From a virus (Duplodnaviria; Caudoviricetes), in the IMG/VR virus record IMGVR_UViG_3300010356_002264: a stretch of DNA of 64,000 nt. One strand, written 5' to 3'. How positions within the stretch are numbered: position 1 is the first letter of the stretch; every line of letters begins with the position of its first letter. This document shows, piece after piece, positions 217 to 53,892 of this stretch. The translations under genes were made by a program, and so were the position numbers. The notes below the pieces were generated by a model. It saw only the letters and a list, made by a program, of their open reading frames with translations. It was not told where the DNA came from and did no database searches.

Positions 217-686
217 CGCTTTCCGTCCTTCTGACCCAGGGAGGCGCGCCGAGCGCGCTCCATCAGGTCCAGCACCTTGGAACGCGGAAGGTCGAGCACC
301 ACGGACAGCTCGTCGGCCACCATGGATCGGAGTCGGTCACGCAGCGTACGCTCCACGTAGGAGGGAGTCTTCCGCCCCAGCAGGTCACGCAGGTGGCTCG
401 CGAGCTCCGACAGGACGCTCTCCTTGACCACCTCCTCGTAGACGCGGCGACGGCGCGTCCAGTAGTTGTGGGCCAGGGGCTCTGGGGCCTCAGCCAGGAG
501 GTCCAGGACCTCCTGAGCCTCGACCGGAGTGACCGTCTCACGCGTCATCAAGTCCACACGCTCGGGAGGGATCTCGATGCGTGGTGGGGTTCCCAAGGAC
601 GTGAGAGGCTCCAGGACGAGGAGGTCATCATCCGATGACAGGACCCTACACACGCCCACTCCTCGGTACACACGGTGGTTTGCCAT
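213..686 (-). CDS. carD: CarD/CdnL-family RNA polymerase-binding factor
   Basis: VYRGVG N-terminus, NYWTRRRRVYEE, ELASHLRDL, SYVER, ELSVVL follow the CarD/CdnL pattern; ATG 686 is 36 nt after a TCAGCTCC motif. Confidence 0.8.
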   Translation of the reverse strand: MANHRVYRGVGVCRVLSSDDDLLVLEPLTSLGTPPRIEIPPERVDLMTRETVTPVEAQEVLDLLAEAPEPLAHNYWTRRRRVYEEVVKESVLSELASHLRDLLGRKTPSYVERTLRDRLRSMVADELSVVLDLPRSKVLDLMERARRASLGQKDGKR

Positions 687-761
687 ACTGTTTTCTAGCT
701 GCGAGACACATGGCGGAGCTGAGGTGTCGCGCGAATCCGACTGGAGGTTCATCGACCTGCC

Positions 762-1511
762 TTACCCCTTGGGGTTGGCGGGCAACTTCCCTCGAAGTGG
801 GCGGGCTCCGCCGCCCGCGTACTGGATGCGGCCACCCGTCGTGTCACCATCGACCCGCAGGGAGATCGCGGTGTCGACGGACTGCGTGGTCTCGTTGGGT
901 GTGGCCACCACGCTGGCGAGCGCCACCAGCCGCTCGCCCAGCGCGAGTCCCTGGTAGCGCTGCTGCGAAGCCTGTAGCCGGCGGAACCCGTCAGCCACCC
1001 CGCGTATCTCGTCCTCCACGACGGAGGCCGCCGCGGTGGCCCCGCCGCGCGCCCCGATGAGGGACGAGATGATCGTCCCGTACCACGGGTACGCGGGGGC
1101 GCTCCCCCGGTTGGTCACGCTCCACTTGGCGACCTGCTGGAAGACCAGGTCAGGACCCGTGACCCACGCGACGGCACGGTCTTGCAGGCGCGCGTCGTTC
1201 TCCACGAGGCTCCCCGCGCAGCGGGGGCACACGGAGGGGTAGCTCACGTAGCGCACCTCGACCGTCTCGTTTCGGGGAGCCCAGCCGCGCCACGACACCT
1301 CCGTGCTCCCCACCTCAGCAGCCCAGCCAGGCCAACCCGTGCCGGACCCCCCCGCACGACCCTCTTGAGAGACCACCACGCCCCCCACGCGCACCTCAAC
1401 GGGACCCGCGACCTCTCCCCGGAGAGTGACAGTCCCGGTCCCGGAGCGGACGCGCGTCCGCTCCCTCACCAGGTGGGGACAGCTCCAGGCGATGCGAGCG
1501 TCTCGGCTCAT
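762..1511 (-). CDS. putative virion/baseplate (gp25-like) protein
   Basis: CPRC motif then VTGPDLVFQQVAKW..TNRGS..YPWYGT..SLIG resembles gp25-like proteins; similarity by eye only. Confidence 0.45.
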   Translation of the reverse strand: MSRDARIAWSCPHLVRERTRVRSGTGTVTLRGEVAGPVEVRVGGVVVSQEGRAGGSGTGWPGWAAEVGSTEVSWRGWAPRNETVEVRYVSYPSVCPRCAGSLVENDARLQDRAVAWVTGPDLVFQQVAKWSVTNRGSAPAYPWYGTIISSLIGARGGATAAASVVEDEIRGVADGFRRLQASQQRYQGLALGERLVALASVVATPNETTQSVDTAISLRVDGDTTGGRIQYAGGGARPLRGKLPANPKG

Positions 1512-1527
1512 GTGGCAAGGATACCGC

Positions 1528-1746
1528 ATGCCCACACCCATCAAGATCCTTCTCTTTGTCCTGGCCGGCGGCCTGATCGGCTACTCGTGCTCGCCCTCCC
1601 CGTCAGCGTTCGACGTGTCAACGCGCGTCTCTGGCTGGGCGGGCGTGTTCCTCGTCATCGCGGTGGTGTGCGTCGCGTTCATGGACGCTCCCACCGCAGA
1701 AGACGAGACCAAGGTCGATGAGACGAGCTCCGGAGAGACTCCATGA
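1528..1746 (+). CDS. small membrane protein
   Basis: Two hydrophobic segments; stop overlaps next ATG. Confidence 0.55.
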   Translation: MPTPIKILLFVLAGGLIGYSCSPSPSAFDVSTRVSGWAGVFLVIAVVCVAFMDAPTAEDETKVDETSSGETP

Positions 1747-1907
1747 ACGCGCGCCTCTACACCCTCATCGTCCTGTACGGGTTCATGGGGTTCTCCTGCT
1801 CGCCAGCCACCTCGCCGCTGCTGCTCGCCCAGCACGCGATGGGCACCGCCGCTTGGCTCGGAGTCCTGACGATCCTCGTCCACTTCTGGTACACGGAGTA
1901 CCGATGA
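1743..1907 (+). CDS. small membrane protein
   Basis: Manual translation MNARLYTLIVLYGFMGF..; GGAG upstream; ATGA coupling at both ends. Confidence 0.5.
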   Translation: MNARLYTLIVLYGFMGFSCSPATSPLLLAQHAMGTAAWLGVLTILVHFWYTEYR

Positions 1908-2305
1908 CAACCCCCAAGACGCCCAGCAAGTTCGTCGTCGAGATCCCGACCCTTGGGGTCAACGCGACCGCGTACAGGATGCAGCGGGATGGCATCACCC
2001 GCGTCGAGTTCCCCCTGTACGCCTACGACCGGAAGACGGTCGAGCCGAGGACGATCGCCCTGCCTGGCCTCGACTGGACGAGCGACCACCTGCGCACCCT
2101 CATCCTCCAGATGGTGAGCGACTACCTGCGCGGGGTCGAGGACGGGAGGCGTGAGGTCCGCGACCAGGTGCTGCGCGGGATCGGCCTCCACGGGCTGCGC
2201 GACGCGGTCGACGACCTGACCGACCGCGTCGACAAGATGGCGGACCGTCTCGACGAGACGCCGACCCGCAGGAGGGGGACCAAGGCCCCCGCCCGCAAGG
2301 ACTAG
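1904..2305 (+). CDS. hypothetical protein
   Basis: GGAG before ATG 1904; high GC3. Confidence 0.6.
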   Translation: MTTPKTPSKFVVEIPTLGVNATAYRMQRDGITRVEFPLYAYDRKTVEPRTIALPGLDWTSDHLRTLILQMVSDYLRGVEDGRREVRDQVLRGIGLHGLRDAVDDLTDRVDKMADRLDETPTRRRGTKAPARKD

Positions 2306-2306
2306 C

Positions 2307-2918
2307 GTGAAGGATTATCCCAGCATCGACGCCACGGTGCGCGGCGGCACCCACTACGTGTTCGGCAAGTACGACGGGTCGAGCCTGCGCTCCGAGTGGA
2401 GCCCGAAGAGGGGCTTCTGGAAGCACGGCAAGCGCAACGGGCTGCTCGACGACTCCAACCCCCACCTCCTCAGGGGACCGGACCTCTTTCGGGAGAAGTA
2501 CGAGGAGGACCTGTCGAGGATCTTCCGCGACGCGCGGTGGCGAAAGGTGGTCGTGTTCTACGAGTTCTGGGGGCCGCAGAGCTTCGCGGGACTGCACGAG
2601 GAGGGCGACGCCCACACGGTGACGCTGTTCGACGTCGCGGCCGACAACCGCGGCATCCTGCCCCCCAACGAGTTCGTGCGCCTGCTGCGGGGCGTCGACC
2701 ACGCGGTGCTGCTGCACCACGGGAGCGTGGGGGACGTCATCGAGCCGGTCCGCGCCGGGACGCTGCCTGGCATGCCGTTCGAGGGGGTCGTGTGCAAGAG
2801 CGCGGAGCTCGCGAGCCCCGGCCTGCCCCGCATGTTCAAGGTGAAGAACCAGGCGTGGTACGCGCGCCTGCGCGAGCGATGCCGAGGTGACGACAAGCTG
2901 TACGAGAGGCTCGCGTGA
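2307..2918 (+). CDS. ATP-dependent RNA ligase (Rnl2-like nucleotidyltransferase domain)
   Basis: Motifs in order: I KYDGS, III EFWG, IIIa LFDV, IV EGVV, V FKVK; no OB domain. Confidence 0.75.
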   Translation: MKDYPSIDATVRGGTHYVFGKYDGSSLRSEWSPKRGFWKHGKRNGLLDDSNPHLLRGPDLFREKYEEDLSRIFRDARWRKVVVFYEFWGPQSFAGLHEEGDAHTVTLFDVAADNRGILPPNEFVRLLRGVDHAVLLHHGSVGDVIEPVRAGTLPGMPFEGVVCKSAELASPGLPRMFKVKNQAWYARLRERCRGDDKLYERLA

Positions 2919-2943
2919 CGGGTACTCCGGGGAGGAGGCCCCC

Positions 2944-3105
2944 ATGAACGCCCTGCTGCTTGGACTCGCCCTCACGATCGCCGACCCCTCACCCTCGACC
3001 CCCGGGAAGCCCGCCGCCGAGAAGTCCGCCAAGCCCCCCAAGAAGGACAAGAAGAAGGGGAAAGGGAAGGAATCCGACGCCGACAACAAACCCCCCATGG
3101 TCTAG
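2944..3105 (+). CDS. small Lys-rich protein with signal-like N-terminus
   Basis: GGAGG before ATG; MNALLLGLALT.. Confidence 0.5.
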   Translation: MNALLLGLALTIADPSPSTPGKPAAEKSAKPPKKDKKKGKGKESDADNKPPMV

Positions 3106-3153
3106 CTGACAGGGGGAAAGTCTCTTGGTAGGCTACGGGGATTCCGAGGTCCC

Positions 3154-3465
3154 ATGAAGACGCCCAAGCCCCCCGCGATCGTCGCGCGAATGGTCCGCGC
3201 CCTGCGAACCATGCCCCTGGAGAAGACCCGAGCCCGCGACCTGCTCGTCCTTAGCCGGCAGGCCCAGCTGCTCGCGAAGAACCAGCCCGAGGAGGCCAGG
3301 CGTCGCCTCCTCACCTTCAGCCACTACCTGTCCGTCCTGGTGCGGGCCTCCCGCACCGCGCGGATCGGCGTCGTGGTCGACATCCTGCGGCTCCTCGATG
3401 AGATGCGACTCAAGCAGCCCCTCACCCCGCCCCCCGAGGCGCGGGACGGAGCGACCAGCGGGTGA
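3154..3465 (+). CDS. hypothetical protein
   Basis: GAGG before ATG; high GC3. Confidence 0.55.
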   Translation: MKTPKPPAIVARMVRALRTMPLEKTRARDLLVLSRQAQLLAKNQPEEARRRLLTFSHYLSVLVRASRTARIGVVVDILRLLDEMRLKQPLTPPPEARDGATSG

Positions 3466-3749
3466 CCGCTGGTACATCTCGCGGCGCGCCCTCCTCAGGG
3501 TGAGCCAGCGCGGACCTGACGGGCGCTACCGGGTCGAGAACCTCGAGCGGCTCGCCCGTCGCCTGGGGGTCGGGCTTCCCCGCATGCCTCGCGAGTGGAA
3601 GGGCTACCGCCTCTCCCTCGTGGGCCGGCTGGAGCGGGTGGTGAGCGCGCCGCGCGACCACTACCCCGGCGAGCGCGACCGCTGGTGAATCCCCCCGATC
3701 GGCCCGTTGAGATCAAGAGTAAAATGCGTGGACCCAAAGGAGCCCGCGC

Positions 3750-4589
3750 ATGTCCGAGCCCACCGATCTTCCCCCGGATCCCATCGTCCTGCACCACTAC
3801 GGCGAGGACGCCCCGTCCGGGGGAGAACCATCGCCTGAGGCGTACGCGAGCGCCCAGGAGGACGCCCTGGAGCTGGAGGCGCTGGGCGCAGTCAACGCGA
3901 TGATCGCGCGGGAGGCGCGGGAGATCGTTCGGAACCCGGACCCCCTGGTGCGCGCCGCCGCCGCCTACCAGCTCGCGCCGCACGAGGTCCCGTTCCTCCT
4001 GGGAGACCCGGACGCCTGCGTGCGGCTCGCCGCCGCGCGCATCTGCGCGGCCTTCCCCCTGCTGCGGGTGCTGCTCTGGGACCTCGGGCTGCGCCGGCGC
4101 GACCCCTCCAGGGACGTGCGGCAGGCGGTGACGGACCTGCTCGCGACGGACGCCTCGACAGTGCGGACACAGATCCCCACCTGGGCGACCGAGGCGATGT
4201 TCGCCTCGGAGCTCTTCGCGCCCAAGCAGGACTTCGAGAGCGACCGCCTCCCCGTGTCGAGGGTCATCCCGAGCATCATGCCGAGCGGCTGCGCTCGCGA
4301 CCGGGCCGCGAGCGCCGTCTGGGCGCGTCGCGAGATCCTCGACTACCCGGCCGCGGACTTCGAGCCCAGCCCGCGGGACGAGCCCGACACCCTGCGCAAG
4401 ACGGTCGCCCGCGTGCACGACGCGAACCATCAGTCGTGGTCGCCCGCGGACGCGCTTCCCCTCGTGGGGGGCTACCACGACGTCGAGCGCATAAACCATC
4501 CGACCCCGCATGGCCCGCCGACGGAGGGCTGGGACCTTGCGGCCCGGCTGGACGCCCCGACGGACCCCACCTCCAAGGAGACCCCTTGA
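3750..4589 (+). CDS. HEAT-repeat-like protein
   Basis: Repeated DP..VR.AAA units; AAGGAG RBS. Confidence 0.6.
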   Translation: MSEPTDLPPDPIVLHHYGEDAPSGGEPSPEAYASAQEDALELEALGAVNAMIAREAREIVRNPDPLVRAAAAYQLAPHEVPFLLGDPDACVRLAAARICAAFPLLRVLLWDLGLRRRDPSRDVRQAVTDLLATDASTVRTQIPTWATEAMFASELFAPKQDFESDRLPVSRVIPSIMPSGCARDRAASAVWARREILDYPAADFEPSPRDEPDTLRKTVARVHDANHQSWSPADALPLVGGYHDVERINHPTPHGPPTEGWDLAARLDAPTDPTSKETP

Positions 4590-7500
4590 GCGACACCGAA
4601 TCCCTTTCTCTCCCGGCCGACGAGGTCGGGTTCAAGTTCGATGAGACCTGCGACGTCGCGGTCCCCCAGGACGTGCTCGTTCGGCCCGGAACGATCCTGG
4701 CGATCTGCCGGGTCCTTCCGCCCCCGGACGGGCACATCGTCTGCAAGCCGACGCGCCTGCTCGACGGCATGGACGAGGACTACGAGTGCTGCGTGGTCCT
4801 AACCGACGAGGCGCACGCCGTGTTGTTCGGAGACGCTGTTCGGGGCGACGGGTATCGCGCCGTCAAGGTGGCCCCCGTCAAGCCGGTCGAGACCGTGGTG
4901 GTTCGCCACGAGGCGGGCGCTCCCCCCATCCAGGAGGGCACGCTGCTGGCCCGCTCGGCGAGGTCGAGCGGACTGCATCGCCTCGTCGTGGACCCCAACC
5001 TGGGCGCGGACGAGGTGCTATACGTCGCGGCGGAGTCGCCCACGACGCTGGTCGCCGCGGGGTCCGTGCGGGTGCGTGCGCACCGCGTCGCGCGCGCCCT
5101 CAACGGCCTGGTCGTCGGGTCGATCCTCCCCGGGCTCCGGGCCCTGTGGCCCAGCGACCCCCCGAAGGCGGGCAAGCTCGCCGAGAGGGACTTCGCGCGC
5201 ATGCGGGGTGCCGCGACGCTGCTCAAGTCCGCGACGCGTCAGCCGGCCGCGCCCGACGCCCTCCCCCCGCTTGACGAGCTTGGGGGCCAGGAGGTCGTCG
5301 AGGTCCTCATGCTGAACGGGGAGGCCGAGAGGTCCGTCAAGGGAACGGTGATCGTGCCCCGCGACGTCCGCTTCTACGAGGGGCGCAGGTGGCACGTCTA
5401 CGAGCGGCAGGACCAGTGGAACGAGGACCGGGGATACCCGCTCGTCGTGGCCGGGGAGGAGACGCGCGAGGCCCCCGAGGGCTACATGCGCGTCGTGCAA
5501 GCGGTGGGCACCCTGCCCCCCGAGCCTCCGGGCGAGGTGCGGGAGGAACCTGACGAGGAGGAGCACGACGTGCGGGAAGCGCCGGGAGACGAAGACGTAT
5601 GGCTGCTCGAGCAGACGGCCTCCCCGGAGGCTCCGCCCAGGCTCGTCCAGACGGAGGCGGCGGACGTGCTGGTGGCCGCGATGCGCGGCACGGGGCCTCG
5701 GCGGACCCGCGCGATGAAGGCCGCGCGCCGGCTGCTGGCGAACGAGAACCTCAGCGTCCACGTGCTCGCGCGGATCACCGCGGGGCTCGCCCAGCAGGGC
5801 GACAAGCCCGAGGTGGCGAGCTCGCTCGCGCGGAGCGAGTCCCCCGTGCGGCGGGCCGCGGCGGCGTTCCTCCTGCCCGTCGAGCACCTTCCCTTCCTGA
5901 CGACCGACCCGAACGAGGCGGTGCGCCAGGCGGCCCACCTGGCCACCAGGCAGGACCGGACCTGGGTGCACCCCGTGGTCAAGGGGAACTTCGTGGCGGC
6001 GGTCAAGGCGATCATCCTGCGGGCCGCGAAGGTCGACGACGACTCGGCGCTCGACGTGCTCGCCTCGCTGTGGAGCGACAAGCCCGAGCCCCCCGAGCGG
6101 ATCGAGGAGGCGATGCGCGCCCTGGAGCTGTCGGACCAGGACGGGCTCAGCCTGTCGGGGATCGGCGAGGAGGAGGCCGAGGAGGACTCGGACGACGTCG
6201 CGACCCTCGCGCGGCTGTGGTCGGCCGACGTCCCGGAGGGGTCGCCCCTGCCCAACGTCGACGACAACCCCACGGAGCTCGACCCGCTCGCCGACCTGAG
6301 GGAGGTCGCGAACATCCCGCGCGCGGCCCAGGAGGTGCCTCGACGCAACGCGATCCCGCTTCGCGACTTCACCTCGAAGGGACCCCGGACGCCCAAGGCG
6401 ACCCCCTTCGGGGACTACGGCACCCCCGAGGCCGAGAACACGCACGCGATCATCAAGCGCGCCACCCTGCGGGCCATCCAGCAGCTCGAGTGCGCCGTGT
6501 GCGGGTCGAGGATGACCCGCACCCTCGACCCGCGTCAGGTGGGGGCGTGCCCGATCGGGCACGAGTGGGTGAACTACCGCTGCACCAAGGACCCGAGCCA
6601 CCTGGTGGTCGACCGACCCGAGCCGATGACCTACAAGGCGGACCCGGACGAGGAGCAGGCGGCCCGCCCCAACACGCCCCGCTACGTGAGCATCTTCGAC
6701 CAGCTCGGATGGCCTCACGAGGAGACGGTCGCGGTGGTAGATGCCAAACCGTCCCACCTGCGCAACACGCTCCTTCTCCGCGTCGACTGGCGGCAAGAAG
6801 GCGGGGTCGTGATACCCGTCTGCCGGGAAGCCGTCGCCGAGGAACTTCCTCCCAAGAACATCGAGGACCTCTGGGTGGGAACGGGGACCTACGCGAAGAG
6901 CGTGAACGTCCCGCACTACGTGCGTGCCGTCAACATCGCGGCACGTCCCCACGGGGAGCCGTCCATACTCGACGCGATCGACCGAACGGCGATCCGCGAC
7001 GACCTCGGATGGGCAGAGCAGCTCACCGCGATGGGGATTCGTGTTCCGGTGAGCTACTCCAGGCTCGACGACCCGCGTCGCTGGCCCCTGGAGGACATCG
7101 AGCAGCGTGGGCGCATCATGCAGAAGGTGTCCGAGGTGATGCGAGAGGTCGTGCTGGGCGAGCCCGTGGGGCAAGCGCTCGGCTACCTTGCCGACCTGCA
7201 CGGCTCGTGGTTCGGTCTGACACAAGACGTCGTAGTGATTCCCGAGGACGCGCGGGTGGAATCGAACCTCCTGCTGCGATGTCGCGGGTGGCGACAGGCG
7301 GGCCTGGGAGACTCGCTCATGGGGGTGCCTGCGTGCGCCGTGGCCTACGCCGCGGACTTCGAGGGATCTCCGTCGGAGGCAGTACAGCCCCGCGCCTTAC
7401 GCGTTGCGACAGGAGACACGCTGATCGCGCAGGTTGGCAACACGACCCTGCGACTCGCCCGTGTCCACGTGGGGGGAGACCTTGGGCCGGACGCGATCGA

Positions 7501-8581
7501 GAAGAAGATCGCCGAACTGGTGAATCCCCGAGGGCGCGTCAAGGCGCTGCGGAAGCTGGGGCTTGTGGTGCGCGAGGACGAAGCGGAGACCCCCATAACC
7601 CAGGGCCCCATCACCCCGCAGGAGCACCGCGCGATGGACGAGGTGTTCGGGGCGGAGACCCTGACGACCTCTGTGCCTCCCGACCCGAGCCAGGTGACCA
7701 TGCAGGACACCCACGCCGATCTCGAGCGAGCGCGACGCCAGGAGCGCGCCCGCTCCGTCGGGTTCGGTCCGGAGTCCGAGGTGGGTTGGGCCGCCTACGA
7801 GGACCAGGGGATGTCGGTTCCGAACCCCGAGGTCCGCACGGTCCAGCCGGCGCGCCAGGTCGGAGGACCCGGGGACGAGATCGCCCCGCTCCCCGTCCTG
7901 TCCCTCGACGAGATTCCTGACGGCGACGACGGCCCGCTCGGGCCGGACCCGGAGGCTCCCGAGGTCGAGCGCATCCGCAAGACCTTGTGGGGGGACGACA
8001 AGGAGATCGTCTCGACGGTCGCCGATCACGAGGCCGAGAGGGCCGAGAGGCTCGTGAAGCGCATCGACGGCATGAGCCCCGAAGAGGTGGCGCGCAGGGT
8101 CGCGGGGGAAGACCCGCCCACCCACCACGCGCGGGTGCCAGAGCACGCGGACGACTTTGACGGGGGCCCGGGGCCTTGGGCTGTCAACATGCCCGAGCAG
8201 GATGCCCGCGCCGTCAGGGACCTGGCCGAGAGGGCCACGCGGGCCGCGCGCGCGGAGCTCGGTGCGGACGCCGACGACGAGGCGGTCTTCCTGCTCGCCC
8301 GCGGCCTGATGGACGACCCCGAGGCGCTCAAGGCGGCCGAGGGACGACTCCTGAAGCAGGCGGAGGACGCGGAGGACGCCCACACGTTCGCGCTCATCGA
8401 CAAGACGATCGAGGACGTGCGGCCGGGACCGGAGACGATGCAGCGCCAGGTCCTCGCGGAGAAGGTCGAGGCAGAGGAGCGCGAGGTGATCGCCAGCCTG
8501 GGGGACGAGGAGCCGAGCAAGGCGGGGCAGCAGATGCAGGACGCCGTCGCGCTCCTGGCGGGAACGGGGGCCTCGTCGTGA
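4586..8581 (+). CDS. large acidic protein (~1330 aa) with short HEAT-like repeat and Zn-ribbon
   Basis: TTG start after AAGGAG, overlapping previous stop; SESPVRRAAA/DPNEAVRQAA; CAVC..C..C. Confidence 0.75.
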   Translation: MSDTESLSLPADEVGFKFDETCDVAVPQDVLVRPGTILAICRVLPPPDGHIVCKPTRLLDGMDEDYECCVVLTDEAHAVLFGDAVRGDGYRAVKVAPVKPVETVVVRHEAGAPPIQEGTLLARSARSSGLHRLVVDPNLGADEVLYVAAESPTTLVAAGSVRVRAHRVARALNGLVVGSILPGLRALWPSDPPKAGKLAERDFARMRGAATLLKSATRQPAAPDALPPLDELGGQEVVEVLMLNGEAERSVKGTVIVPRDVRFYEGRRWHVYERQDQWNEDRGYPLVVAGEETREAPEGYMRVVQAVGTLPPEPPGEVREEPDEEEHDVREAPGDEDVWLLEQTASPEAPPRLVQTEAADVLVAAMRGTGPRRTRAMKAARRLLANENLSVHVLARITAGLAQQGDKPEVASSLARSESPVRRAAAAFLLPVEHLPFLTTDPNEAVRQAAHLATRQDRTWVHPVVKGNFVAAVKAIILRAAKVDDDSALDVLASLWSDKPEPPERIEEAMRALELSDQDGLSLSGIGEEEAEEDSDDVATLARLWSADVPEGSPLPNVDDNPTELDPLADLREVANIPRAAQEVPRRNAIPLRDFTSKGPRTPKATPFGDYGTPEAENTHAIIKRATLRAIQQLECAVCGSRMTRTLDPRQVGACPIGHEWVNYRCTKDPSHLVVDRPEPMTYKADPDEEQAARPNTPRYVSIFDQLGWPHEETVAVVDAKPSHLRNTLLLRVDWRQEGGVVIPVCREAVAEELPPKNIEDLWVGTGTYAKSVNVPHYVRAVNIAARPHGEPSILDAIDRTAIRDDLGWAEQLTAMGIRVPVSYSRLDDPRRWPLEDIEQRGRIMQKVSEVMREVVLGEPVGQALGYLADLHGSWFGLTQDVVVIPEDARVESNLLLRCRGWRQAGLGDSLMGVPACAVAYAADFEGSPSEAVQPRALRVATGDTLIAQVGNTTLRLARVHVGGDLGPDAIEKKIAELVNPRGRVKALRKLGLVVREDEAETPITQGPITPQEHRAMDEVFGAETLTTSVPPDPSQVTMQDTHADLERARRQERARSVGFGPESEVGWAAYEDQGMSVPNPEVRTVQPARQVGGPGDEIAPLPVLSLDEIPDGDDGPLGPDPEAPEVERIRKTLWGDDKEIVSTVADHEAERAERLVKRIDGMSPEEVARRVAGEDPPTHHARVPEHADDFDGGPGPWAVNMPEQDARAVRDLAERATRAARAELGADADDEAVFLLARGLMDDPEALKAAEGRLLKQAEDAEDAHTFALIDKTIEDVRPGPETMQRQVLAEKVEAEEREVIASLGDEEPSKAGQQMQDAVALLAGTGASS

Positions 8582-9189
8582 CGCCCGCCCAGGTGGCCGC
8601 CGCGTGCGGCCTGAAGGACCCCGACGCCCACGTGCGGGCAGCCGAGACGGTCGCCCCGTCCACGGACGGCCGCAAGCGCGGCTACACGACCCGGATGCTC
8701 TGCCAGGCGGTCTCCCACGCCTCCGAGGGCAAGGAGGTGGTGGTGGTCGCCCTGCCCTCCTACGTGCGGGACGAGACGATGTTCCGGCTCGCGACCGGCA
8801 TGGCCGCGCGGGCGGGGCTCCGGCTCCAGCGCATCGAGGGGCAGCGGGCGCAGTTCGACCGCGGGTCGATCCGCGTGGCGTCGAGCCAGGACCCCGCGGG
8901 CGTGCCGGCAGGAGAGCGGCCCGGCCTCGTGGTGCTGCGCGACCACCTCGTCGAGGCGACGGCCCCGCTGTACCTCCCCGCCAAGGAGTGGACCTGCCAC
9001 CACGTGGTCCCCCGCGACGGGAAGCGCTGCGCGTCGTGCGGTGAGGACCTGCGAGGCCAGGACCTGCGCGACGCCCGGCGCCGGCGCGGGGAGCAGGAGG
9101 CCGCCCAGCGCGAGGTCCCGAGCAGGGTGATCCTCGACCCCCGGGGGACAGCTCCCGCGTCAGCCACGTACGTTCCCCAGAAGCCATGA
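8578..9189 (+). CDS. hypothetical protein, degenerate P-loop-like segment
   Basis: GTGA coupling; GRKRGYTT; C-terminal CxH/CxxC. Confidence 0.55.
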   Translation: MTPAQVAAACGLKDPDAHVRAAETVAPSTDGRKRGYTTRMLCQAVSHASEGKEVVVVALPSYVRDETMFRLATGMAARAGLRLQRIEGQRAQFDRGSIRVASSQDPAGVPAGERPGLVVLRDHLVEATAPLYLPAKEWTCHHVVPRDGKRCASCGEDLRGQDLRDARRRRGEQEAAQREVPSRVILDPRGTAPASATYVPQKP

Positions 9190-9665
9190 TCCCACCCAAG
9201 CCTTGGCCACGCGACGCGCGCCCCTACGCGGACCTGCGCAGGCGCTTCAGCAGCGCGCTCACCTCCGTCCTACCGGCGGTCGCCCACTACCCCCTCACGG
9301 TGCTGCTGGAGGAGTTCGACGAGTACGTCGAGGGGGGACCCGCTCGCGACCCCCGCGAGGTCGACGCGCTCCAGGGGATCCTGTCGGCGCTCCTGGCGTA
9401 CCGGAACGCGTACCGGGAGCGCGCCCAGGACCCCAGCCCGGTCCAGGAGTCCGCGGGCCGACCGAGGTGGGCGCTGTTCTGCATGGGCTGGCACGCGATG
9501 CCCGGCGAGCGGGGGCTCCTCCCCCACGCGCCCCCGGACGGGGTGCCCGAGCGCCGCTGGGGCCTGTGGGCGCGCCTGTGGGTGCAGGCGGGAAGCCCGA
9601 CCGGTGCGGCCTACGACGAGTGGATGGCGGACGTCACCCGGTCGGGAGCGCTCGAACCAAGGTGA
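9186..9665 (+). CDS. hypothetical protein
   Basis: Start/stop coupling on both sides. Confidence 0.55.
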   Translation: MIPPKPWPRDARPYADLRRRFSSALTSVLPAVAHYPLTVLLEEFDEYVEGGPARDPREVDALQGILSALLAYRNAYRERAQDPSPVQESAGRPRWALFCMGWHAMPGERGLLPHAPPDGVPERRWGLWARLWVQAGSPTGAAYDEWMADVTRSGALEPR

Positions 9666-10144
9666 GGAGCCCCGTCGTCAAGCGCGCGACCCACGTGCTG
9701 CGGGTCCCCCAGGTGCGCGCGCTGCGCGAGGCCGAGCAGGAGCACTGCTACGTGCTCGGCCTCGACGCCGGCCACCACGTGACCGTCGTCCACCTGGTCT
9801 CGGTGGGGACCGTGGACATCGCCTACCCCCACGCGCGGGACGTCTTCCGGGAGCTCATCCGGCACAACTGCGTGAAGTTCGTGTTCGTCCACAACCACCC
9901 GGGAGGCCACACGGGTCCGTCCGACGGGGACCGCGACGTGACCGCGTGGCTGCGGCACGCCGGGGAGTGGCTCGGGATCCCGCTCGTCGCCCACGTGCTC
10001 GTGCCGGGCCGGCGAGGGTGCCCGGTCGACGTGGGACCCCCCCTGGAGGCCCCGGACCGATCCCGAACCGAACCCGCCGGTATGCGAGGCTGCCAGCGGG
10101 GCGGAAGATCCGCTCATGAGCTACCGCACGAGCCACTGCCGTAA
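9662..10144 (+). CDS. RadC-like JAB/MPN domain protein
   Basis: EQEH..VLGLD, GTVD, HNHPGG...PSDGD. Confidence 0.85.
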   Translation: MRSPVVKRATHVLRVPQVRALREAEQEHCYVLGLDAGHHVTVVHLVSVGTVDIAYPHARDVFRELIRHNCVKFVFVHNHPGGHTGPSDGDRDVTAWLRHAGEWLGIPLVAHVLVPGRRGCPVDVGPPLEAPDRSRTEPAGMRGCQRGGRSAHELPHEPLP

Positions 10145-42846: not shown

Positions 42847-42851
42847 CTCCT

Positions 42852-43131: not shown

Positions 43132-43215
43132 GCTCGGGTGGCGGAACTAGGCAGACGCGCCGTCCTTAAAACTCGGTGCCCACGTGGCGTAGGGGTTCGA
43201 TTCCCCTCCCGAGCA
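43132..43215 (+). tRNA. tRNA-Leu(TAA)
   Basis: ctTAAaa; two mismatches in anticodon stem. Confidence 0.8.
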
Positions 43216-43253
43216 CACCTCTTCATCTCTCGCTCTTCCAGCGCTCAACATAC

Positions 43254-43338
43254 GCCCAGGTGGCGGAACTTCGGCAGACGCGCTCGCCTCAAAACCGAGT
43301 GTCTACGTGACGTGTGGGTTCGACTCCCTCCCTGGGCA
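43254..43338 (+). tRNA. tRNA-Leu(CAA)
   Basis: loop ctCAAaa. Confidence 0.85.
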
Positions 43339-43384
43339 CTTTAACGGTAGACATACCGTATCAACACATCATAGACTCTACCTA

Positions 43385-44439: not shown

Positions 44440-44753
44440 TCCCGCAGGACCAGCAGGTCGAACTGCATGAGGGCCTCCCCTTCATGCAGTTCGACTTCCG
44501 TGTAGTTGCCCTCCCGCTCATACCATCCAGATTGTGGGGCGTCCTGCCCCCTTGCGCGGAACGCCGCGTCGATCACCAGACATAAACTCCGGTACTGCTG
44601 GTAGCTCTGTGGGGTGTGCTTGACGCGCACGTCGACGACGTGTCCGTACAGGTCGTTCTGTCGCGCGACGACGGAGGTGACCTCCAGGCCCTTGGAGGAG
44701 GCTTCCGACCGAATGAGGTGCTCAAGATCCGCAGCGGTAAACAGGTTCTTCAT
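44436..44753 (-). CDS. hypothetical protein
   Basis: ATG 37 nt from motif at 44790. Confidence 0.6.
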   Translation of the reverse strand: MKNLFTAADLEHLIRSEASSKGLEVTSVVARQNDLYGHVVDVRVKHTPQSYQQYRSLCLVIDAAFRARGQDAPQSGWYEREGNYTEVELHEGEALMQFDLLVLRD

Positions 44754-44791
44754 GCCTGGTAGTAGATGCGGGCCGTCACTACGGAGCTGAC

Positions 44792-45761: not shown

Positions 45762-45944
45762 CTACTCGGGAAGGGTGGAGAGCCACTGGTGGAGGGCGGG
45801 GCCGCCTTGGTGCAGGCCGGAGAAGACCCAGACCATGAGCCCGACGAGCAGCGCCCGCAGGGGCTCGACGCCCGCGAAGCTCGCGGCGGCGCTGGCAGAC
45901 CCGAGGATGAGGCCCTCGCGCAAGATGAGTGCAAGGCCCCTCAC
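45762..45944 (-). CDS. small membrane protein
   Basis: Two hydrophobic segments; GTGA coupling to kinase. Confidence 0.5.
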   Translation of the reverse strand: MRGLALILREGLILGSASAAASFAGVEPLRALLVGLMVWVFSGLHQGGPALHQWLSTLPE

Positions 45945-46804
45945 GGCTTCGTCTTGACCGTCAGGACGGTCCCGTCGCGGAATCGCAGCGCCTCACGAGT
46001 CGATGGGCGCTTGAAGACCTTCTCGCGGATCTCATGGATCGTCTTGCGCACCAGGGCGGCCGAGTGCGGCCGAACCGTGGGGTCCGCGCAGAGGAGGTGC
46101 GCGATGAGGTCCCGCAGGGGTTCGCAGGTGTCAGACGGAACGACCCCCGTGCAAGGGTCCCCGCCGAGCATCGCGATCATCACCTTTCCTGCGGACCAGA
46201 GATCGGACTCGCCGATCGGTGGCATGCGGGATAGGATCTCTGGCGCGATGTAGCCAGGCGACCCACCCTTCCCCACGCTGTCCCGCTTGGACCCAGCGAC
46301 CGACACGGTGAAGTCGGTGAGTACCGCCCCGTGTTGTGGGACGTCGACGATGAGGTTGTCGGGCTTGACGTCCCCGTGGAAGACTCCGCACTTGTGCAGG
46401 TGACCTAGCGCCTCAAGCAGGCGATCCGCGACCCACAGGGTGTGCTCGTCATCTAGCGGCCGGCGCGCGACGAACGCGGTACGGTCGGCGTTCGGCTGAA
46501 CGTCGAGGATCTTCCCGAGCGTCTGGCCTGGAGCCCAGGTGAGCACCATGAAGGGGAACCCTTCGCGGTCGACGACGTAGTCGTGCAGCGCGGGGATCGT
46601 GTAGTGGTGAGGGATGCGGGACAGGAGGCTAGCCTCCTGCAAGAAGAGCGTAGCTTCGTCTCCGTCCTTCCACTTGGACTGCTTGACCGCCACCCGGTGG
46701 CCCAGGTGTATGTGTCGCGCCTCGTAGACGCAGCCGAACGAACCCTCTCCGACGAGTTTCTTGAGGGCGTAGCTCCCCACCTGGAGGTTTGAACTTGCTG
46801 GCAT
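45941..46804 (-). CDS. Hanks-type Ser/Thr protein kinase
   Basis: GEGSFG, VAVK, HGDVKPDN, DFT, GSPGYIAPE, SDLWS; ATG 37 nt from motif. Confidence 0.92.
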   Translation of the reverse strand: MPASSNLQVGSYALKKLVGEGSFGCVYEARHIHLGHRVAVKQSKWKDGDEATLFLQEASLLSRIPHHYTIPALHDYVVDREGFPFMVLTWAPGQTLGKILDVQPNADRTAFVARRPLDDEHTLWVADRLLEALGHLHKCGVFHGDVKPDNLIVDVPQHGAVLTDFTVSVAGSKRDSVGKGGSPGYIAPEILSRMPPIGESDLWSAGKVMIAMLGGDPCTGVVPSDTCEPLRDLIAHLLCADPTVRPHSAALVRKTIHEIREKVFKRPSTREALRFRDGTVLTVKTKP

Positions 46805-47287
46805 GCTCACAGCACGAGCAGCCGCGCGCCCCAGGAGCTGACGGTTACAGGTCGCGCGACCTGTAACCGAGCAGGTGCAGCCCCATCACGATGCTGGCCG
46901 CCACACCCCACATCAGGGCGATCGACCCTCCTACCGACAGGTCGAAGCGCACGACGGTCGCTAGGATCCCCATCCATACGGGGATCCCTAACACCTCAGG
47001 CCAGTAGTCCGAGGGGTCCACCAGGCCCGCCAGGACCTGCAAGGGTCCTAGCAGGACACGGAGAAGCAAGCGGAACCACAGGACCGCAGAGATGACGCGG
47101 CCCACGGGGGCGCGCGAAGGCCCCCTACAGGGGAAACAGGAGATGAGAGGAGACACGGCGAAACTCGCAGAGGCAGGACGTGATGCGCAGGCGATGCTGG
47201 AGGGCGTTACGTCGGTTGTCGGGTACTACGCTCGATGAGATCGAGGAGACTTCAAAGGTCCCTTTCCCTCTGGGAACCTCTTGTTAG

Positions 47288-47360
47288 TTGCGAGCGGGAG
47301 GATTTGAACCTCCGACCTTCTGGGTATGAGCCAGACGAGCTACCGCTGCTCCACGCCGCA
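47288..47360 (-). tRNA. tRNA-Met(CAT), fMet-like body
   Basis: Reverse complement TGCGGCGTGGAGCAGCGGTAGCTCGTCTGG-ctCATac-CCAGAAGGTCGGAGGTTCAAATCC. Confidence 0.85.
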
Positions 47361-47409
47361 ATGAGTATGATGCAGGATCGTGGTCACTTTGTCAAGCGGA
47401 GCTGAGAAA

Positions 47410-48114: not shown

Positions 48115-48966
48115 ATGTCGCAAGCTCCCTGGTGGATCATCTACTTCGTGCGGTCTGGACCTCCAGGAGGTCCGATCAAGATCGGAGTCACCGTCGACCT
48201 CCTGAAGAGGATAAAGCTGCTTCAGACGGGCAACCCAGAGAAGCTCGTGCTGTTGCGGGCCATCACAGGCGACGCTCTACTAGAGAGAGAACTACACGCT
48301 AGATTCAAACACATAAGAATACACGGGGAATGGTTTAAGCCTACTGATGAACTATTGTCCTTCATTGATCAAATCTCTGACGCTTGGGCGAACGACTTCA
48401 ATGAATCATTAAAACGACCCTGCACTTGCGGCAGAAATCAGTACACGGTATCTCAGCTTCCTAACGAGGCGTTCGTCGCGTTGTGTCGTCGTTGTCTCAT
48501 GCGTCAGAACGGGCACATGAACACGTTCCTCACTCGGTGCGCCCACCGAGAACGCCCCTATGTTCCCCCGAAGCCCTGTTCACATTGTGCGGTACCCTCG
48601 AAGCCTTTGCGTAAGGGCAGGTGTCATACGTGCCACGAATACTACCGTAGGCACGGAGTGGATCGAGACTTATCTCTACCGCGTAAGAAGATATGCGCTA
48701 ACTGCAACAAAGAATGCGAACGATTATCTAGGAGTAGGTGCAGGATCTGCTACTCGTACTGGTATCAGTATGGCGTTGAGCGAGGACCCGACGACAACAT
48801 CCACGCAAACAAGGGACCTGAAACCATAAGACGATACACGAGGAGACGTCTTGTGGACATCATACCAAGTGATACTTCTCACAGCTCCGGTCCTCCGTCC
48901 GTCTCCGACCCACCCGCATGCCTCACATCCTCTCTGAGCGTCCCCAACGAGGAACCCTCGACGTAG
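48115..48966 (+). CDS. GIY-YIG (T5orf172/MUG113-like) protein with Zn fingers
   Basis: IYFV..IKIG.T..RIK.LQTGNP..LERELH.RF..GEWF; low GC. Confidence 0.85.
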   Translation: MSQAPWWIIYFVRSGPPGGPIKIGVTVDLLKRIKLLQTGNPEKLVLLRAITGDALLERELHARFKHIRIHGEWFKPTDELLSFIDQISDAWANDFNESLKRPCTCGRNQYTVSQLPNEAFVALCRRCLMRQNGHMNTFLTRCAHRERPYVPPKPCSHCAVPSKPLRKGRCHTCHEYYRRHGVDRDLSLPRKKICANCNKECERLSRSRCRICYSYWYQYGVERGPDDNIHANKGPETIRRYTRRRLVDIIPSDTSHSSGPPSVSDPPACLTSSLSVPNEEPST

Positions 48967-49415
48967 ACTACGGGTTCGTTCACGACCGCGAGGGTCGCCC
49001 CACGTGGCTCGCGGTCGGCAACGCCTGCTCGCGCAACTCACGGCGCTGGTCCGCCGTGGTGACCCTGTGTGGACAGGCGGAGCTCGACAACTCCCGCGCC
49101 AACTACATCGAGGTGTGCCCGCCCCCGACCCTGATGGTCCCGCTCGACGAGATGGAGGGAGGGTCGTCGCGGCACCTCCCCATCATCCTCGCGTTCGTGC
49201 AGCACTACGTGCGCGGGGATCGCCCCCAGGTGCTCGTCCACTGCGACGCAGGGATCAAGCGAGGCCCTGCGATCGCGATCTTCCTCCTTACGGCGCACGG
49301 GTGGGAGGAGCGAGACGCAATCGAGGGGGTCCAACGCGCACGCCCCGTAGCCAGCCCCTCTCCAGCCCTCCTGAGCGAGGGTCGGGACTACCTAGAAGAG
49401 ATCCTCTGCCCGTAG
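48918..49415 (+). CDS. dual-specificity phosphatase
   Basis: VLVHCDAGIKRG (HCx5R); ATG 37 nt from ACAGCTCC. Confidence 0.85.
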   Translation: MPHILSERPQRGTLDVDYGFVHDREGRPTWLAVGNACSRNSRRWSAVVTLCGQAELDNSRANYIEVCPPPTLMVPLDEMEGGSSRHLPIILAFVQHYVRGDRPQVLVHCDAGIKRGPAIAIFLLTAHGWEERDAIEGVQRARPVASPSPALLSEGRDYLEEILCP

Positions 49416-49416
49416 T

Positions 49417-49447
49417 TCAGCTCCGGTTAGCTCGGTCCAATCGACTA
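49417..49447 (+). promoter_or_regulatory. TCAGCTCC-N17-CGACTA promoter-like motif (consensus copy)
   Basis: 37 nt before ATG 49454. Confidence 0.75.
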
Positions 49448-49453
49448 TCCGGC

Positions 49454-49714
49454 ATGAGCAAGACCTCCAAACCGGCCCGCAAGGGCAACATGAACCTCGG
49501 GTACGACGAGAACGACCCCTCTACCTGGCCGCACGACGTGCGCCTGTTCCACGAGCTTCGCTCGATGCCCGCCGATATGCTTGTGGCGATCGTCCACGGG
49601 GACGTCAAGGTGGACGATGTGGCACGCAAGATCCTCGCGGACTGTGGGCTGGACGACCAAGGCAAGTGGGTAGGTCCCGACAAGGCGGCCAAGATCCACA
49701 AGGTGACACTGTGA
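49454..49714 (+). CDS. hypothetical protein
   Basis: LADCGLDDQGKWVG; follows motif. Confidence 0.65.
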   Translation: MSKTSKPARKGNMNLGYDENDPSTWPHDVRLFHELRSMPADMLVAIVHGDVKVDDVARKILADCGLDDQGKWVGPDKAAKIHKVTL

Positions 49715-51676: not shown

Positions 51677-52234
51677 CTACAGGAGCGAGCTGTCCAGGGC
51701 GCGCAGGGCCTCCACGTTGGTCCGGTTGATGTACCAGGCCGGCGGCCGGCGCGCGAGCACATCCAGCAGGATGTCCTCCGCGCGCACCCGGTCGCGCGTT
51801 ATGCGGTACCCGCAGTAGGCCGTCGGGCTGCGGTTGGCCCCCTGGAGGCAGTGGAACAGCACGGGTCCGCGCGTGCGGTGCTGGTCCACGAACGCCCACG
51901 CGGGCACGCACTTGGTGAGCAGCCCCTCCCCCTGGTCCTCGTGCTCCACGTGGAACATCGGGACCGACGGCATCGCGACCCGCGCGCCCACATAGCGCGC
52001 GTCCGCCTCCGAGAGGATCGAGACGACCGCCACGAAGCGCGGGTCCACCCGCGCCTCTACGGACCCCACGAAGAAGCCTGGGGCCACCTCGTGACAGGCG
52101 GGCTTGTTTGGTTGCTGGGCCGGACAGTGCGTGCGGTGGGACATCGAGAGCTTGAGCCCAAACTTGCAGTGCGGGCACACCGTGGGGGGGTAGTAGAAGG
52201 GTTCGGGTCCCTTGTCCGTGTTGGTGAGGGTCAT
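51677..52234 (-). CDS. dual-specificity phosphatase
   Basis: VLFHCLQGANRS; ATG 37 nt from motif. Confidence 0.85.
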   Translation of the reverse strand: MTLTNTDKGPEPFYYPPTVCPHCKFGLKLSMSHRTHCPAQQPNKPACHEVAPGFFVGSVEARVDPRFVAVVSILSEADARYVGARVAMPSVPMFHVEHEDQGEGLLTKCVPAWAFVDQHRTRGPVLFHCLQGANRSPTAYCGYRITRDRVRAEDILLDVLARRPPAWYINRTNVEALRALDSSLL

Positions 52235-52263
52235 GGTAGGGCGTATACCCGCGTCGGCGGATT

Positions 52264-52281
52264 CGAGCTGAAGTCAGCTCT
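52264..52281. promoter_or_regulatory. second back-to-back motif pair (CGAGCTGA-AG-TCAGCTCT)
   Basis: 37 nt to ATG 52234 (-) and to ATG 52311 (+). Confidence 0.7.
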
Positions 52282-52310
52282 GATCACCGTCGGTGAGGCG
52301 ACTTCACACT

Positions 52311-52514
52311 ATGACGAACAACGGCTTCACGAAGGGCACCAAGGTGCTGAGCAGGGACGGCAAGCAGGAGGGGGCGCTTACAGGGGGTCGGCGCCGCTGC
52401 CAGCTCGCCGGGTGCAACGGGATCCGAGTCGTGGTGCGGTGGGCGGACAACAAGGTGACATACCCCTGCACGAAGGGTCTGGAACCGCACGGCGAGGCCC
52501 TTCGGATCGCATAG
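52311..52514 (+). CDS. small Cys-containing protein
   Basis: CQLAGC..W..PC. Confidence 0.6.
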   Translation: MTNNGFTKGTKVLSRDGKQEGALTGGRRRCQLAGCNGIRVVVRWADNKVTYPCTKGLEPHGEALRIA

Positions 52515-52554
52515 TGATCAGCTCCGGTATTTGGATCTCTGGCGACAGGACCCC

Positions 52555-53892
52555 ATGACCCTATACCACGTCATCCCGATCAAGAACTTCGCACGCGGCT
52601 ACGACAAGTACGCGAGGAGCTATCGCAAGGCCCTCATCCCAGAGAGCCGCTACCCCGACGAGTTCTACCTCGTGCGCGAGGACGAGGTCCCGCAGGCGGT
52701 CGAGAAGGCCCGCACGCTATGCCAGCGGGTCGGGGGGTCTGTGCAGGGGGACGTCCTCGTGCTGGAGACGCAGGTCGACGAGTCGGCCACCCTACCCCAC
52801 CCGCGCGGCGGGTTCGGCGTCGTGTACCCTCGTGGCGAGATCACGCTATCCTGCGTGCGCCGCACGACCTTGGACGGCCGTCGGGGCGAGGTCATCTCGG
52901 TGGAGGACGCGACTGCCTGGTCGCTTGCGGAGCACGACCTCCAGCCCTACGAGGCCCTGCGTCCACGGTCGATATCCTTCCTGCCGATCGCGCGCGGCTG
53001 CCAGGCATCGTGCAGCTTCTGCTTCTCGGAGGCGAGCGCCTCTGCCGACCAGCGACAGGCCCAGCCCGACTGGGCCCTATGGAATCGCTGGGCCGTCGAG
53101 GCGAAGATCGTTGGGGCCGAGCGGGCGGTCATTACAGGTGGTGGTGAGCCGACTCTCATGCGAGACGAGGACCTCCCGCGCCTGATCCGTATGTGTCGTC
53201 AACACTTCGACAAGGTCGTTCTCATCACCAACGGGTTCGCGCTGACTCAGCAGTCTCCGTCGTGGGCCATCGCCAAGCTCGGGGCACTCTACGGGGCGGG
53301 CCTGTCAGTCCTTTCGGTCTCGCGCCACCACATGAGCGAGGACCGCAACACCGACATCATGCTCCTGCGGACGCTGACGCCAGACCTGCTGCGCCTCGTC
53401 GTCGACCGTCGGCCCTTCTTCAAGGATCTGCGGGTGCGCCTTGTGTGCGTGCTCCAGAAGGGCGGGATCGAGACGATCGGCGATGTGGAGAGCTACGTGA
53501 CCTGGGCGGCCAACCACGGTGCGGACGAGGTGTGCTTCAAGGAGCTCTACGTCTCCACGAGTCGCGAGTCCGTCTACCACTCGCGCAAAGCCAACCAGTG
53601 GAGCGCCGACCACCAGGTGCCCCTGTCTGTCGTGACCGACTGGGCGTGTGCGCTTGGCCTCCAGGCCGAGTCCCGCCTCCCCTGGGGTGCTCCCGTCTTC
53701 GCGCTCCAGCGGAACGGGCGACCCATGCGAGTCGCCGCCTACACAGAGCCCTCGCTCTACTGGGAACGCACGAGCGGCATCGCCCGAAGCTGGAACGTCA
53801 TGGCCGACGGTACCTGCCTCGCCTCGCTGGAGGACTGCGCGAGCAGGCTCGACCCTCCTGGCATCCTGGCATCCCCAGAGGTGACGTCGTGA
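52555..53892 (+). CDS. radical SAM enzyme with extra N-terminal domain
   Basis: CQASCSFC, ITGGGEP, ITNG; ATG 37 nt from motif at 52518. Confidence 0.88.
   Translation: MTLYHVIPIKNFARGYDKYARSYRKALIPESRYPDEFYLVREDEVPQAVEKARTLCQRVGGSVQGDVLVLETQVDESATLPHPRGGFGVVYPRGEITLSCVRRTTLDGRRGEVISVEDATAWSLAEHDLQPYEALRPRSISFLPIARGCQASCSFCFSEASASADQRQAQPDWALWNRWAVEAKIVGAERAVITGGGEPTLMRDEDLPRLIRMCRQHFDKVVLITNGFALTQQSPSWAIAKLGALYGAGLSVLSVSRHHMSEDRNTDIMLLRTLTPDLLRLVVDRRPFFKDLRVRLVCVLQKGGIETIGDVESYVTWAANHGADEVCFKELYVSTSRESVYHSRKANQWSADHQVPLSVVTDWACALGLQAESRLPWGAPVFALQRNGRPMRVAAYTEPSLYWERTSGIARSWNVMADGTCLASLEDCASRLDPPGILASPEVTS

Follow-up and report, generated by a model that had tools for sequence, protein, structure and literature searches.

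A two-box, promoter-like motif phased to putative leaderless start codons in a viral record with a large tRNA array

The stretch of DNA considered here, hereafter the window, is the 64,000-nucleotide (nt) sequence of the IMG/VR virus record IMGVR_UViG_3300010356_002264 (Duplodnaviria; Caudoviricetes), and the element under study is a short two-box motif, termed class I, that recurs in it upstream of start codons and of transfer RNA (tRNA) genes. With a G+C content of 60-72%, the window carries 43 tRNA genes, 42 of which form an array at 29234-43339, interspersed with small open reading frames (ORFs) and HNH endonuclease genes, the remaining one being a lone tRNA-Met on the opposite strand. Based on Pfam, PHROGs and NCBIfam searches, the recognisable window proteins are of accessory or takeover types. 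These include a Ser/Thr kinase, two dual-specificity phosphatases, Ppx/GppA, TatD, a ferritin-like protein, a protein resembling phosphoadenosine phosphosulfate (PAPS) reductase, a DNA methylase, a uracil-DNA glycosylase (UDG), a metallophosphatase, and one protein with a pyrophosphatase domain known from phage head proteins. Neither DNA nor protein matches to the window were found among the INPHARED phages, and a search of IMG/VR for related loci with a 445-amino-acid (aa) window protein returned no match. Two long products, of 1331 aa (4586-8581, +) and 765 aa (60452-62749, -), have good coding statistics and gave no Pfam, PHROG or PDB sequence match.

An octamer phased to start codons

The octamer WCAGCTCB occurs 40 times in the window, against 17.8 +/- 4.3 times in dinucleotide shuffles (shuffle maximum 29), and its strict form, TCAGCTCC, 20 times against 3.5 +/- 1.8 expected from shuffles, with each of the strict copies facing a protein-coding or RNA gene in the proper orientation. 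Counted from the first base of the octamer, the distance to an ATG is exactly 37 nt in 23 of the 40 cases, where 0.38 would be expected per offset, and every other offset in a histogram spanning 8-89 holds at most three. The original prediction had placed the octamer 37 nt before an ATG at a series of sites on both strands and had proposed such a distance histogram as a check; the sharp peak of 23 ATGs at 37 answers it, and every coordinate listed proved correct, as did the exception at 722 (-), where the ATG stands at 36 nt. Two phased sites had been overlooked, namely 14224 (+), which leads to a 300-aa ORF, and 18059 (-), which leads to a 282-aa ORF of metallo-beta-lactamase (MBL) fold, together with two other copies at 9148 (+), with its ATG at 38 nt, and at 36051 (+), upstream of non-coding sequence. 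The same signal emerged from a motif-blind count of 6-mers, made at each fixed offset ahead of 248 candidate ATG starts, in which CAGCTC at -36 ranked first (22 occurrences, 0.12 expected, P ~4e-42) and CGACTA at -12 was also significant (5 versus 0.04 expected). All the phased ATGs except that of 51693 (-) open ORFs of at least 67 aa, and 21 of them enter the gene map; the ATG at +37 of 51693 (-) is followed by only 11 codons and was set aside as a probable chance occurrence. The phasing of the octamer to the ATG is confirmed as real and far beyond chance.

Alignment of the 23 phased sites brings out a second, downstream box. Five columns of this alignment (-12, -11, -10, -9 and -1) were not used for site selection, and they show C at -12 in 18 sites, G at -11 in 15, A at -10 in 20, C at -9 in 17, and a pyrimidine at -1 in all 23 (21 C and 2 T). 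The upstream box is much better conserved than this -10 box, and the spacers between the boxes are unconserved, which identifies a motif rather than a repeat. Consistent with the earlier estimate of about half, CGAC begins 17 nt after the octamer (offset 25) in 12 of the 23 phased copies, and in 13 of all 40; it is found at offset 26 (an 18-nt spacer) in one octamer and at offset 24 (a 16-nt spacer) in none. When the A of the ATG is taken as +1, the octamer's last six bases fall at -35 to -30 and CGACTA at -12 to -7. The two blocks thus lie near -35 and -10, and the 17 nt between the end of the octamer at -30 and CGAC are within the 16-18 bp of sigma70-family promoters; a C or T at -1 (23/23) and an A at +1 then follow, the predicted start lying 6 nt after the -10 block. 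A -35-type box separated by 17 nt from a -10-type box, which itself lies 6 nt from a putative A(+1)TG, is canonical sigma70-family geometry, and the rigid spacing and placement of the boxes bear out the sigma70-type spacing originally recognised.

Several observations point to transcription as the process in which the motif acts, and to start codons at the very end of the resulting messages. For the copy at 47405 (-), the predicted start falls 8 nt upstream of tRNA-Met, which argues for a role in transcription and not in translation. Those at 28836 and 41236 are followed by non-coding stretches with more stable predicted folds than their shuffles (z -5.05 and z -3.2, respectively), so that the claim of copies ahead of RNA regions held for all three. 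At 15164, 26871 and 59600 the predicted start lies 14, 12 and 27 nt before the ATG, and AGGAG or GGAGGA occurs in each gap, as expected from the proposal that a Shine-Dalgarno (SD) sequence follows the predicted start wherever the ATG is farther away. The SD sequence is missing in 17 of the 21 called leaderless genes, in agreement with the view that many lack one.

Leaderless messenger RNAs (mRNAs) need a 5'-terminal AUG. Among the 40 octamers, position +37 holds 23 ATG and neither GTG nor TTG, the latter two being absent from the 17 other octamers as well, and GTG or TTG starts were called in 7 of 24 SD-led genes. A comparison of ATG usage among the called genes would be circular, the sites having been picked by their ATG, and the argument is limited to the lack of GTG and TTG among the other octamers; this absence would fit the AUG requirement. 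The first 40 nt after the phased ATGs (-5.9 kcal/mol) fold less than internal stretches of those genes (-11.8 kcal/mol; P = 3e-6), and this weak folding supports these ATGs as true starts. G-poor, weakly folded 5' coding ends were rejected as a hallmark of leaderless genes, being found in SD-led genes too. Taken as a promoter that would yield leaderless messages, the motif is strongly supported by sequence evidence.

The exact arrangement TCAGCTCC-N17-CGACTA-N6-ATG was matched elsewhere in a single IMG/VR viral contig, hereafter G001 (134.7 kb, 66% G+C, 30% complete according to CheckV), which contains four such matches, and a looser pattern scanned over IMG/VR again returned G001 only. In this contig, 17 of 42 octamers have an ATG at +37 and 11 of 42 have CGAC after 17 nt, and the phased sites show the same A at -10 (13/17) and the same pyrimidine at -1 (17/17). 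A matrix trained on G001 alone found 25 sites in the window, where shuffles gave about 2.4; YATG is read at 19 of these sites. No orthologous genes were found in common between G001 and the window. The second carrier, L018, is a phage-like contig of 4.4 kb binned in a Syntrophaceae metagenome-assembled genome (MAG), in which four of five octamers are phased; the rest of that MAG showed no motif beyond chance. A tblastx search with L018 gave compositional noise only and was discarded. Apart from L018, pattern scans of 185,579 GTDB species-representative genomes and of Joint Genome Institute (JGI) metagenomes returned only single, chance-level matches. Multi-copy carriers in these scans are limited to G001 and L018, which places the code in a small phage lineage and not in any sampled cellular regulon.

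One public DNA run (X1) contains contigs of a relative that is 85-99% alike to the window. In this relative, the spacer of the promoter at 20818 carries a +1 indel (after 20801) and a -1 indel (at 20808) that cancel, so that the 37-nt phasing is kept, and indels upstream of the same octamer do not cancel. This is a single case among the 40 of 737 differences listed, and possibly an alignment effect.

Distribution of class I promoters along the window

The leftmost class I promoter (684-722, -) has its ATG, 686, at offset 36 and drives the CarD/CdnL-like gene 686-213 discussed below. The weak copy ACAGCTCC at 9148-9188 (+) stands at offset 38 from ATG 9186 of a 159-aa ORF and, with its poor -10 box, is doubtful. 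Predicted leaderless ATGs follow the promoters at 11173-11212 (+; ATG 11210, 122 aa) and 14224-14263 (+; ATG 14261, 300 aa), and the promoter at 15164-15217 (+) is separated from ATG 15215 by the 14-nt leader with AGGAG. On the minus strand, class I promoters are located at 18020-18059 (ATG 18022, the 282-aa MBL-fold hydrolase), 18445-18484 (ATG 18447, 127 aa), 18731-18770 (ATG 18733, 82 aa), 19852-19891 (ATG 19854, 81 aa, with a complete CGACTA box), 20779-20818 (ATG 20781, 125 aa) and 22720-22759 (ATG 22722, 266 aa), the last two also with CGACTA, and at 23943-23982 (ATG 23945, 111 aa). Only 1 nt away from the latter is the divergent promoter at 23984-24023 (+), with CGACTA and ATG 24021 of the 306-aa PAPS-reductase-like protein. 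The plus strand then carries the promoters at 25351-25390 (ATG 25388, 110 aa) and 26871-26922, whose 12-nt leader with GGAGGA precedes ATG 26920 (449 aa).

In the region of the tRNA array, the promoter at 28836-28873 (+) precedes the structured non-coding leader 28873-29233 and the array itself. Between this promoter and the first tRNA, the same leader contains a sigma70-like promoter (TTGACC...TAGAAA) and a strong G+C hairpin, then a T run. Farther along the plus strand are a weak copy, ACAGCTCG, at 30231-30270 (ATG 30268, 223 aa), with an SD-like AGAGGA in the place of the -10 box, and the promoters at 32973-33012 (ATG 33010, 89 aa), 35180-35219 (ATG 35217, 100 aa) and 39915-39954 (ATG 39952, 141 aa). 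The strict octamer at 36051-36088 (+) has no ATG at +37, and the sequence that follows runs to tRNA-Ala at 36620, with a fold z of only -1.7. The promoter at 41236-41273 (+), with a CGACCT box, precedes the structured non-coding stretch 41273-41801 and tRNA-Arg at 41802. A T-arm-like sequence, GGTTCAACTCC, occurs within this stretch, which may be a tRNA-like RNA gene without an ARAGORN or Rfam call.

To the right of the array, minus-strand promoters are found at 44751-44790 (ATG 44753, 105 aa), at 46802-46841 (ATG 46804, the 287-aa Ser/Thr protein kinase) and at 47360-47405, where transcription is predicted to begin at 47368, 8 nt short of tRNA-Met (47360-47287). On the plus strand, the promoter at 48881-48920 precedes ATG 48918 of a 165-aa dual-specificity phosphatase, and that at 49417-49456 (ATG 49454, 86 aa) has the top matrix score in the window. 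The promoter of the second dual-specificity phosphatase (52232-52271, -; ATG 52234, 185 aa) lies 2 nt from the divergent promoter at 52274-52313 (+; ATG 52311, 67 aa), and is followed by that at 52518-52557 (+; ATG 52555), which precedes a 445-aa product with a weak radical-SAM-like match. The last copy, at 59534-59600 (-), again reads ACAGCTCC and is weak; its 27-nt leader contains AGGAG before ATG 59536 (396 aa).

Two divergent pairs are thus arranged back to back, at 23975-23991 and 52264-52281, with octamers 1 and 2 nt apart, and in the divergent class I pairs of G001 the octamers are 3 and 4 nt apart. This variable gap suggests two independent promoters in each pair and not one palindromic site. 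The genes behind class I promoters include a signalling and takeover set made up of the Ser/Thr kinase (45941-46804, -) and the two dual-specificity phosphatases (48918-49415, +, and 51677-52234, -), to which the Ppx/GppA phosphatase gene at 22775-23704 (+) can be added. Class I promoters are sparse in the flanks of the window (1-11000 and 53000-64000), where genes are SD-led and 4-nt overlaps are frequent, which suggests longer operons of a different expression class. A consensus scan of 14000-33999 returned no sigma70-type promoter, and terminators there were no commoner than in shuffles.

Candidate readers of the class I promoters

Class I promoters are probably read by a bacterial (host) core RNA polymerase equipped with a phage-encoded alternative sigma70-family factor. 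In such a model, the motif would be the promoter of a phage-specific transcription class, with the last six bases of (T/A)CAGCTCC contacted at -35 to -30, a rigid 17-nt spacer and CGAC(T)(A) at -12 to -7. With a pyrimidine at -1, initiation would take place at the A of the ATG and give an mRNA without a 5' leader, and the ribosome would bind the 5'-terminal AUG directly for translation. The phage sigma itself could be ECF-like (extracytoplasmic function) or group-3-like. About 30 units of the window would be served in this way, corresponding to roughly one in four protein genes, most of them with accessory or host-takeover roles, and to the tRNA arrays.

The involvement of a bacterial polymerase is suggested by the 157-aa product of 686-213 (-), read from ATG 686 behind its own class I promoter, which is a CarD/CdnL homolog. 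It matches Pfam CarD_C (2.7e-6), among PDB entries it matches M. xanthus CdnL best (2LWJ, 2e-8), and it aligns to CdnL over residues 50-160, with a YWTRRRR stretch meeting the conserved (wedge) Trp. The Tudor-like polymerase-interaction domain was sought in the N-terminal 80 residues, which gave no Pfam hit at E up to 0.1. The protein belongs to no PHROG family, and a search of 5.8 billion proteins recovered only one other cluster. A longer start at 752, with a GGTAAG box 6 nt upstream, is also available to this gene. CarD/CdnL-family proteins bind bacterial RNA polymerase and stabilise open complexes, and the presence of a homolog favours a bacterial polymerase over a phage one. In Myxococcus, CarD has been linked to ECF sigmas (PMC4374960). 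The phage homolog may aid the opening of the G+C-rich class I promoters, although any role at these promoters is conjecture.

Promoters of a more familiar type also occur in the window. A canonical sigma70-type leaderless promoter, TTGATA-N17-TAGATT-N6-ATG, is located at 48115 (+) and has a divergent partner at 48030 (-), both in an A+T-rich divergent gap. Similar sigma70-like leaderless starts, here termed class II, with TAGATT-type -10 boxes 5-7 nt before the ATG, were observed at 11544, 11876, 31717 and 33560, and distances from TAnnnT to ATG peak at 12, with 6 cases against a background of about 1.5. The -10 block of class I promoters has G at -11 and A at -7 instead of the A and T that the primary sigma requires, and would be unable to serve it. 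Two promoter specificities imply either two holoenzymes or an added factor.

Such a second specificity might be provided by an alternative sigma of the host (ECF or group 3) that the phage exploits. The geometry, with its pyrimidine at -1 and purine at +1, would suit any sigma70-family factor, and no sigma gene was found in the window. However, apart from the phage-like 4.4-kb contig, none of the 185,579 prokaryote representatives has more than one ATG-phased bipartite copy, and anti-sigma factors normally keep host ECF sigmas inactive, which makes this origin of the factor unlikely. Alternatively, the octamer could be bound by a phage activator that stands in for recognition of a -35 box, similar to T4 MotA/AsiA or in the form of a free region-4-like protein, with the host primary sigma melting the promoter. 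The far better conservation of the upstream box would agree with an activator site, as would the small G001 proteins that consist of sigma region-4 domains only, one of them behind a class I promoter. These proteins, however, come from G001 and not from the window; moreover, the -10 box is not TAnnnT, its G at -11 and A at -7 occupying positions where the primary sigma needs A and T, and genuine TAGATT-type promoters are separately present in the window, so that we consider an activator of this kind quite unlikely.

Recognition by a phage-encoded RNA polymerase, either single-subunit or divergent multisubunit as in phiKZ and AR9, appears very improbable. The element is a very large phage-like genome, and the products of 4586-8581 and 62749-60452, which belong to no recognisable family, might conceal such an enzyme; yet a pair of boxes at -35 and -10, spaced 17 nt apart, is the hallmark of sigma-dependent recognition, and the CarD/CdnL homolog points to a bacterial RNA polymerase. 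The promoters of phiKZ and AR9 are also short, A+T-rich and near the start, and their mRNAs are leadered (PMC8244752, PMC5312081). It is scarcely credible, finally, that the motif is not a promoter at all. A dispersed repeat would be at odds with the unconserved spacers, and the strand-specific copies stand ahead of tRNA genes as well as ORFs. An RNA-processing site or translation signal 37 nt upstream would leave the pyrimidine at -1, the A at +1 and the two-box geometry with its 17-nt spacer unexplained.

The preferred reading, a host core polymerase directed by a phage sigma, is itself faced with several contrary observations. The original prediction had attributed the leaderless transcripts to a phage-encoded or ECF sigma. 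Its promoter and leaderless part stood, through the exact geometry, the unselected columns, the copies before RNA genes and the recurrence in G001; the search for a sigma factor that it had proposed found none, since no sigma or RNA polymerase subunit was detected by Pfam, PHROGs or NCBIfam among the approximately 85 window proteins. The sigma region-4 proteins encoded in G001 speak for a phage sigma; sigma region 2 was looked for in that contig and not found. The -10 box is poor in roughly half of the phased sites. Typical ECF sigma promoters have AAC at -35 and CGT at -10; class I promoters have TCAGCTCC, without AAC, and CGAC(T)(A), with only CG in common, which gives their reader a tentative family placement at best. 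A very divergent polymerase is formally conceivable, given the 1331-aa and 765-aa proteins without a detectable family. We infer from the sequence that transcripts start at the A of the ATG. The motif was observed directly, along with its geometry and statistics and its presence in two further records; the start site, translation without a leader, which sigma is involved and when the genes are expressed are predictions built on these observations.

The region-4 proteins of G001 occur in two settings. At G001:C1:25680-26983 (L044:743-2046), a 209-aa protein with two sigma region-4 domains comes after a 221-aa protein that looks NusG/KOW-like by eye and has no Pfam hit. On the minus strand of L046, a 127-aa Cys-rich protein with one region-4 helix-turn-helix (HTH) lies behind a class I promoter.

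A further possibility, which we put forward as doubtful, is that the phage operates an orthogonal channel, in which its own sigma and its own CarD/CdnL protein transcribe about a quarter to a third of the genes, together with the tRNA arrays, as AUG-initial messages. If this were true, translation of these messages would depend neither on SD sequences nor on the usual 30S initiation, and class I genes would continue to be expressed even as takeover shuts down transcription by host sigma-A or SD-dependent initiation. The code has practical uses as well. It would fix about 25 start codons, along with transcription units, in a genome of mostly family-less proteins, and offers a simple annotation guide for relatives. 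As a compact and apparently orthogonal promoter, the class I element may also be, with its sigma, a candidate tool for high-G+C hosts.

Comparison with known systems

Phage sigmas with private bipartite promoters are already known, as are leaderless classes of phage transcripts. What is new is the consensus, the phasing of an alternative-sigma-type promoter to the start codon with single-base precision, the abundance of the motif (about 30 copies within 64 kb), and the use of such promoters for tRNA arrays. The closest parallel is Salmonella phage 7-11, whose sigma factor gp47, a relative of phiEco32 gp36, reads private promoters of the form GTAAtg-N16-aCTA, present eight times in the genome (PMC8948821). 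Both systems have a phage-specific two-box consensus unlike that of the host, a spacer of 16-17 nt and many uses genome-wide, and the pairing of the host core with a phage sigma is predicted for class I. In contrast to phage 7-11, the consensus is TCAGCTCC-N17-CGACTA, the predicted +1 is phased to the A of the ATG, which would make transcripts leaderless, and about 30 copies occur in 64 kb, against eight in the whole 7-11 genome. Whereas phiEco32 and 7-11 use theirs as late structural promoters, class I serves a kinase, phosphatases, a CarD-like protein, an MBL hydrolase, a PAPS-reductase-like protein and tRNAs.

In Thermus phage phiYS40, most mRNAs of the middle and late class are leaderless, according to the account of Sevostyanova et al. 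2007 given in PMC3594737. The common traits would be a large phage with one transcript class that is mostly leaderless and translated as such, features predicted here. Transcription in phiYS40 reportedly depends on host sigma-A and on -10-type promoters without a -35 box. The strongest class I element is, on the contrary, a novel -35-type octamer, and its -10 box is not TAnnnT. Leaderless genes are also common in Deinococcus-Thermus and mycobacteria, where the -10 box adjoins the ORF (PMC12340547, PMC3898074). As in these bacteria, the -10 element of class I lies 6-7 nt upstream of the start codon, SD sequences are mostly lacking and a sizeable fraction of the genes is concerned; in contrast to them, where the primary sigma reads TAnnnT, class I would represent a second, non-canonical specificity, and it is class II that resembles theirs. 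Nor does class I match promoter appropriation by T4 MotA/AsiA, in which an activator box near -30 is combined with TAnnnT, since its -10 box is CGACTA with G at -11 and A at -7.

ECF promoters, in which the -35 block is strongly required and the spacer measures 16-18 bp, have a pyrimidine at -1 followed by a purine at +1, and can give A-initiated leaderless transcripts (PMC7776599). Class I promoters are similar in their two blocks, spacer and predicted A-initiated leaderless start, and differ in their boxes, CAGCTCC and CGAC, and in extent, ECF regulons being small and class I covering about a quarter of the genes. The CarD/CdnL protein of M. xanthus (PMC4374960; 2LWJ) differs from the 686-213 homolog in that the latter is phage-encoded and has an N-terminal domain without Pfam detection. 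Finally, the jumbo phages phiKZ and AR9 have their own polymerases and leadered mRNAs (PMC8244752, PMC5312081), and the class I code sets the window apart from these jumbo phages studied so far.

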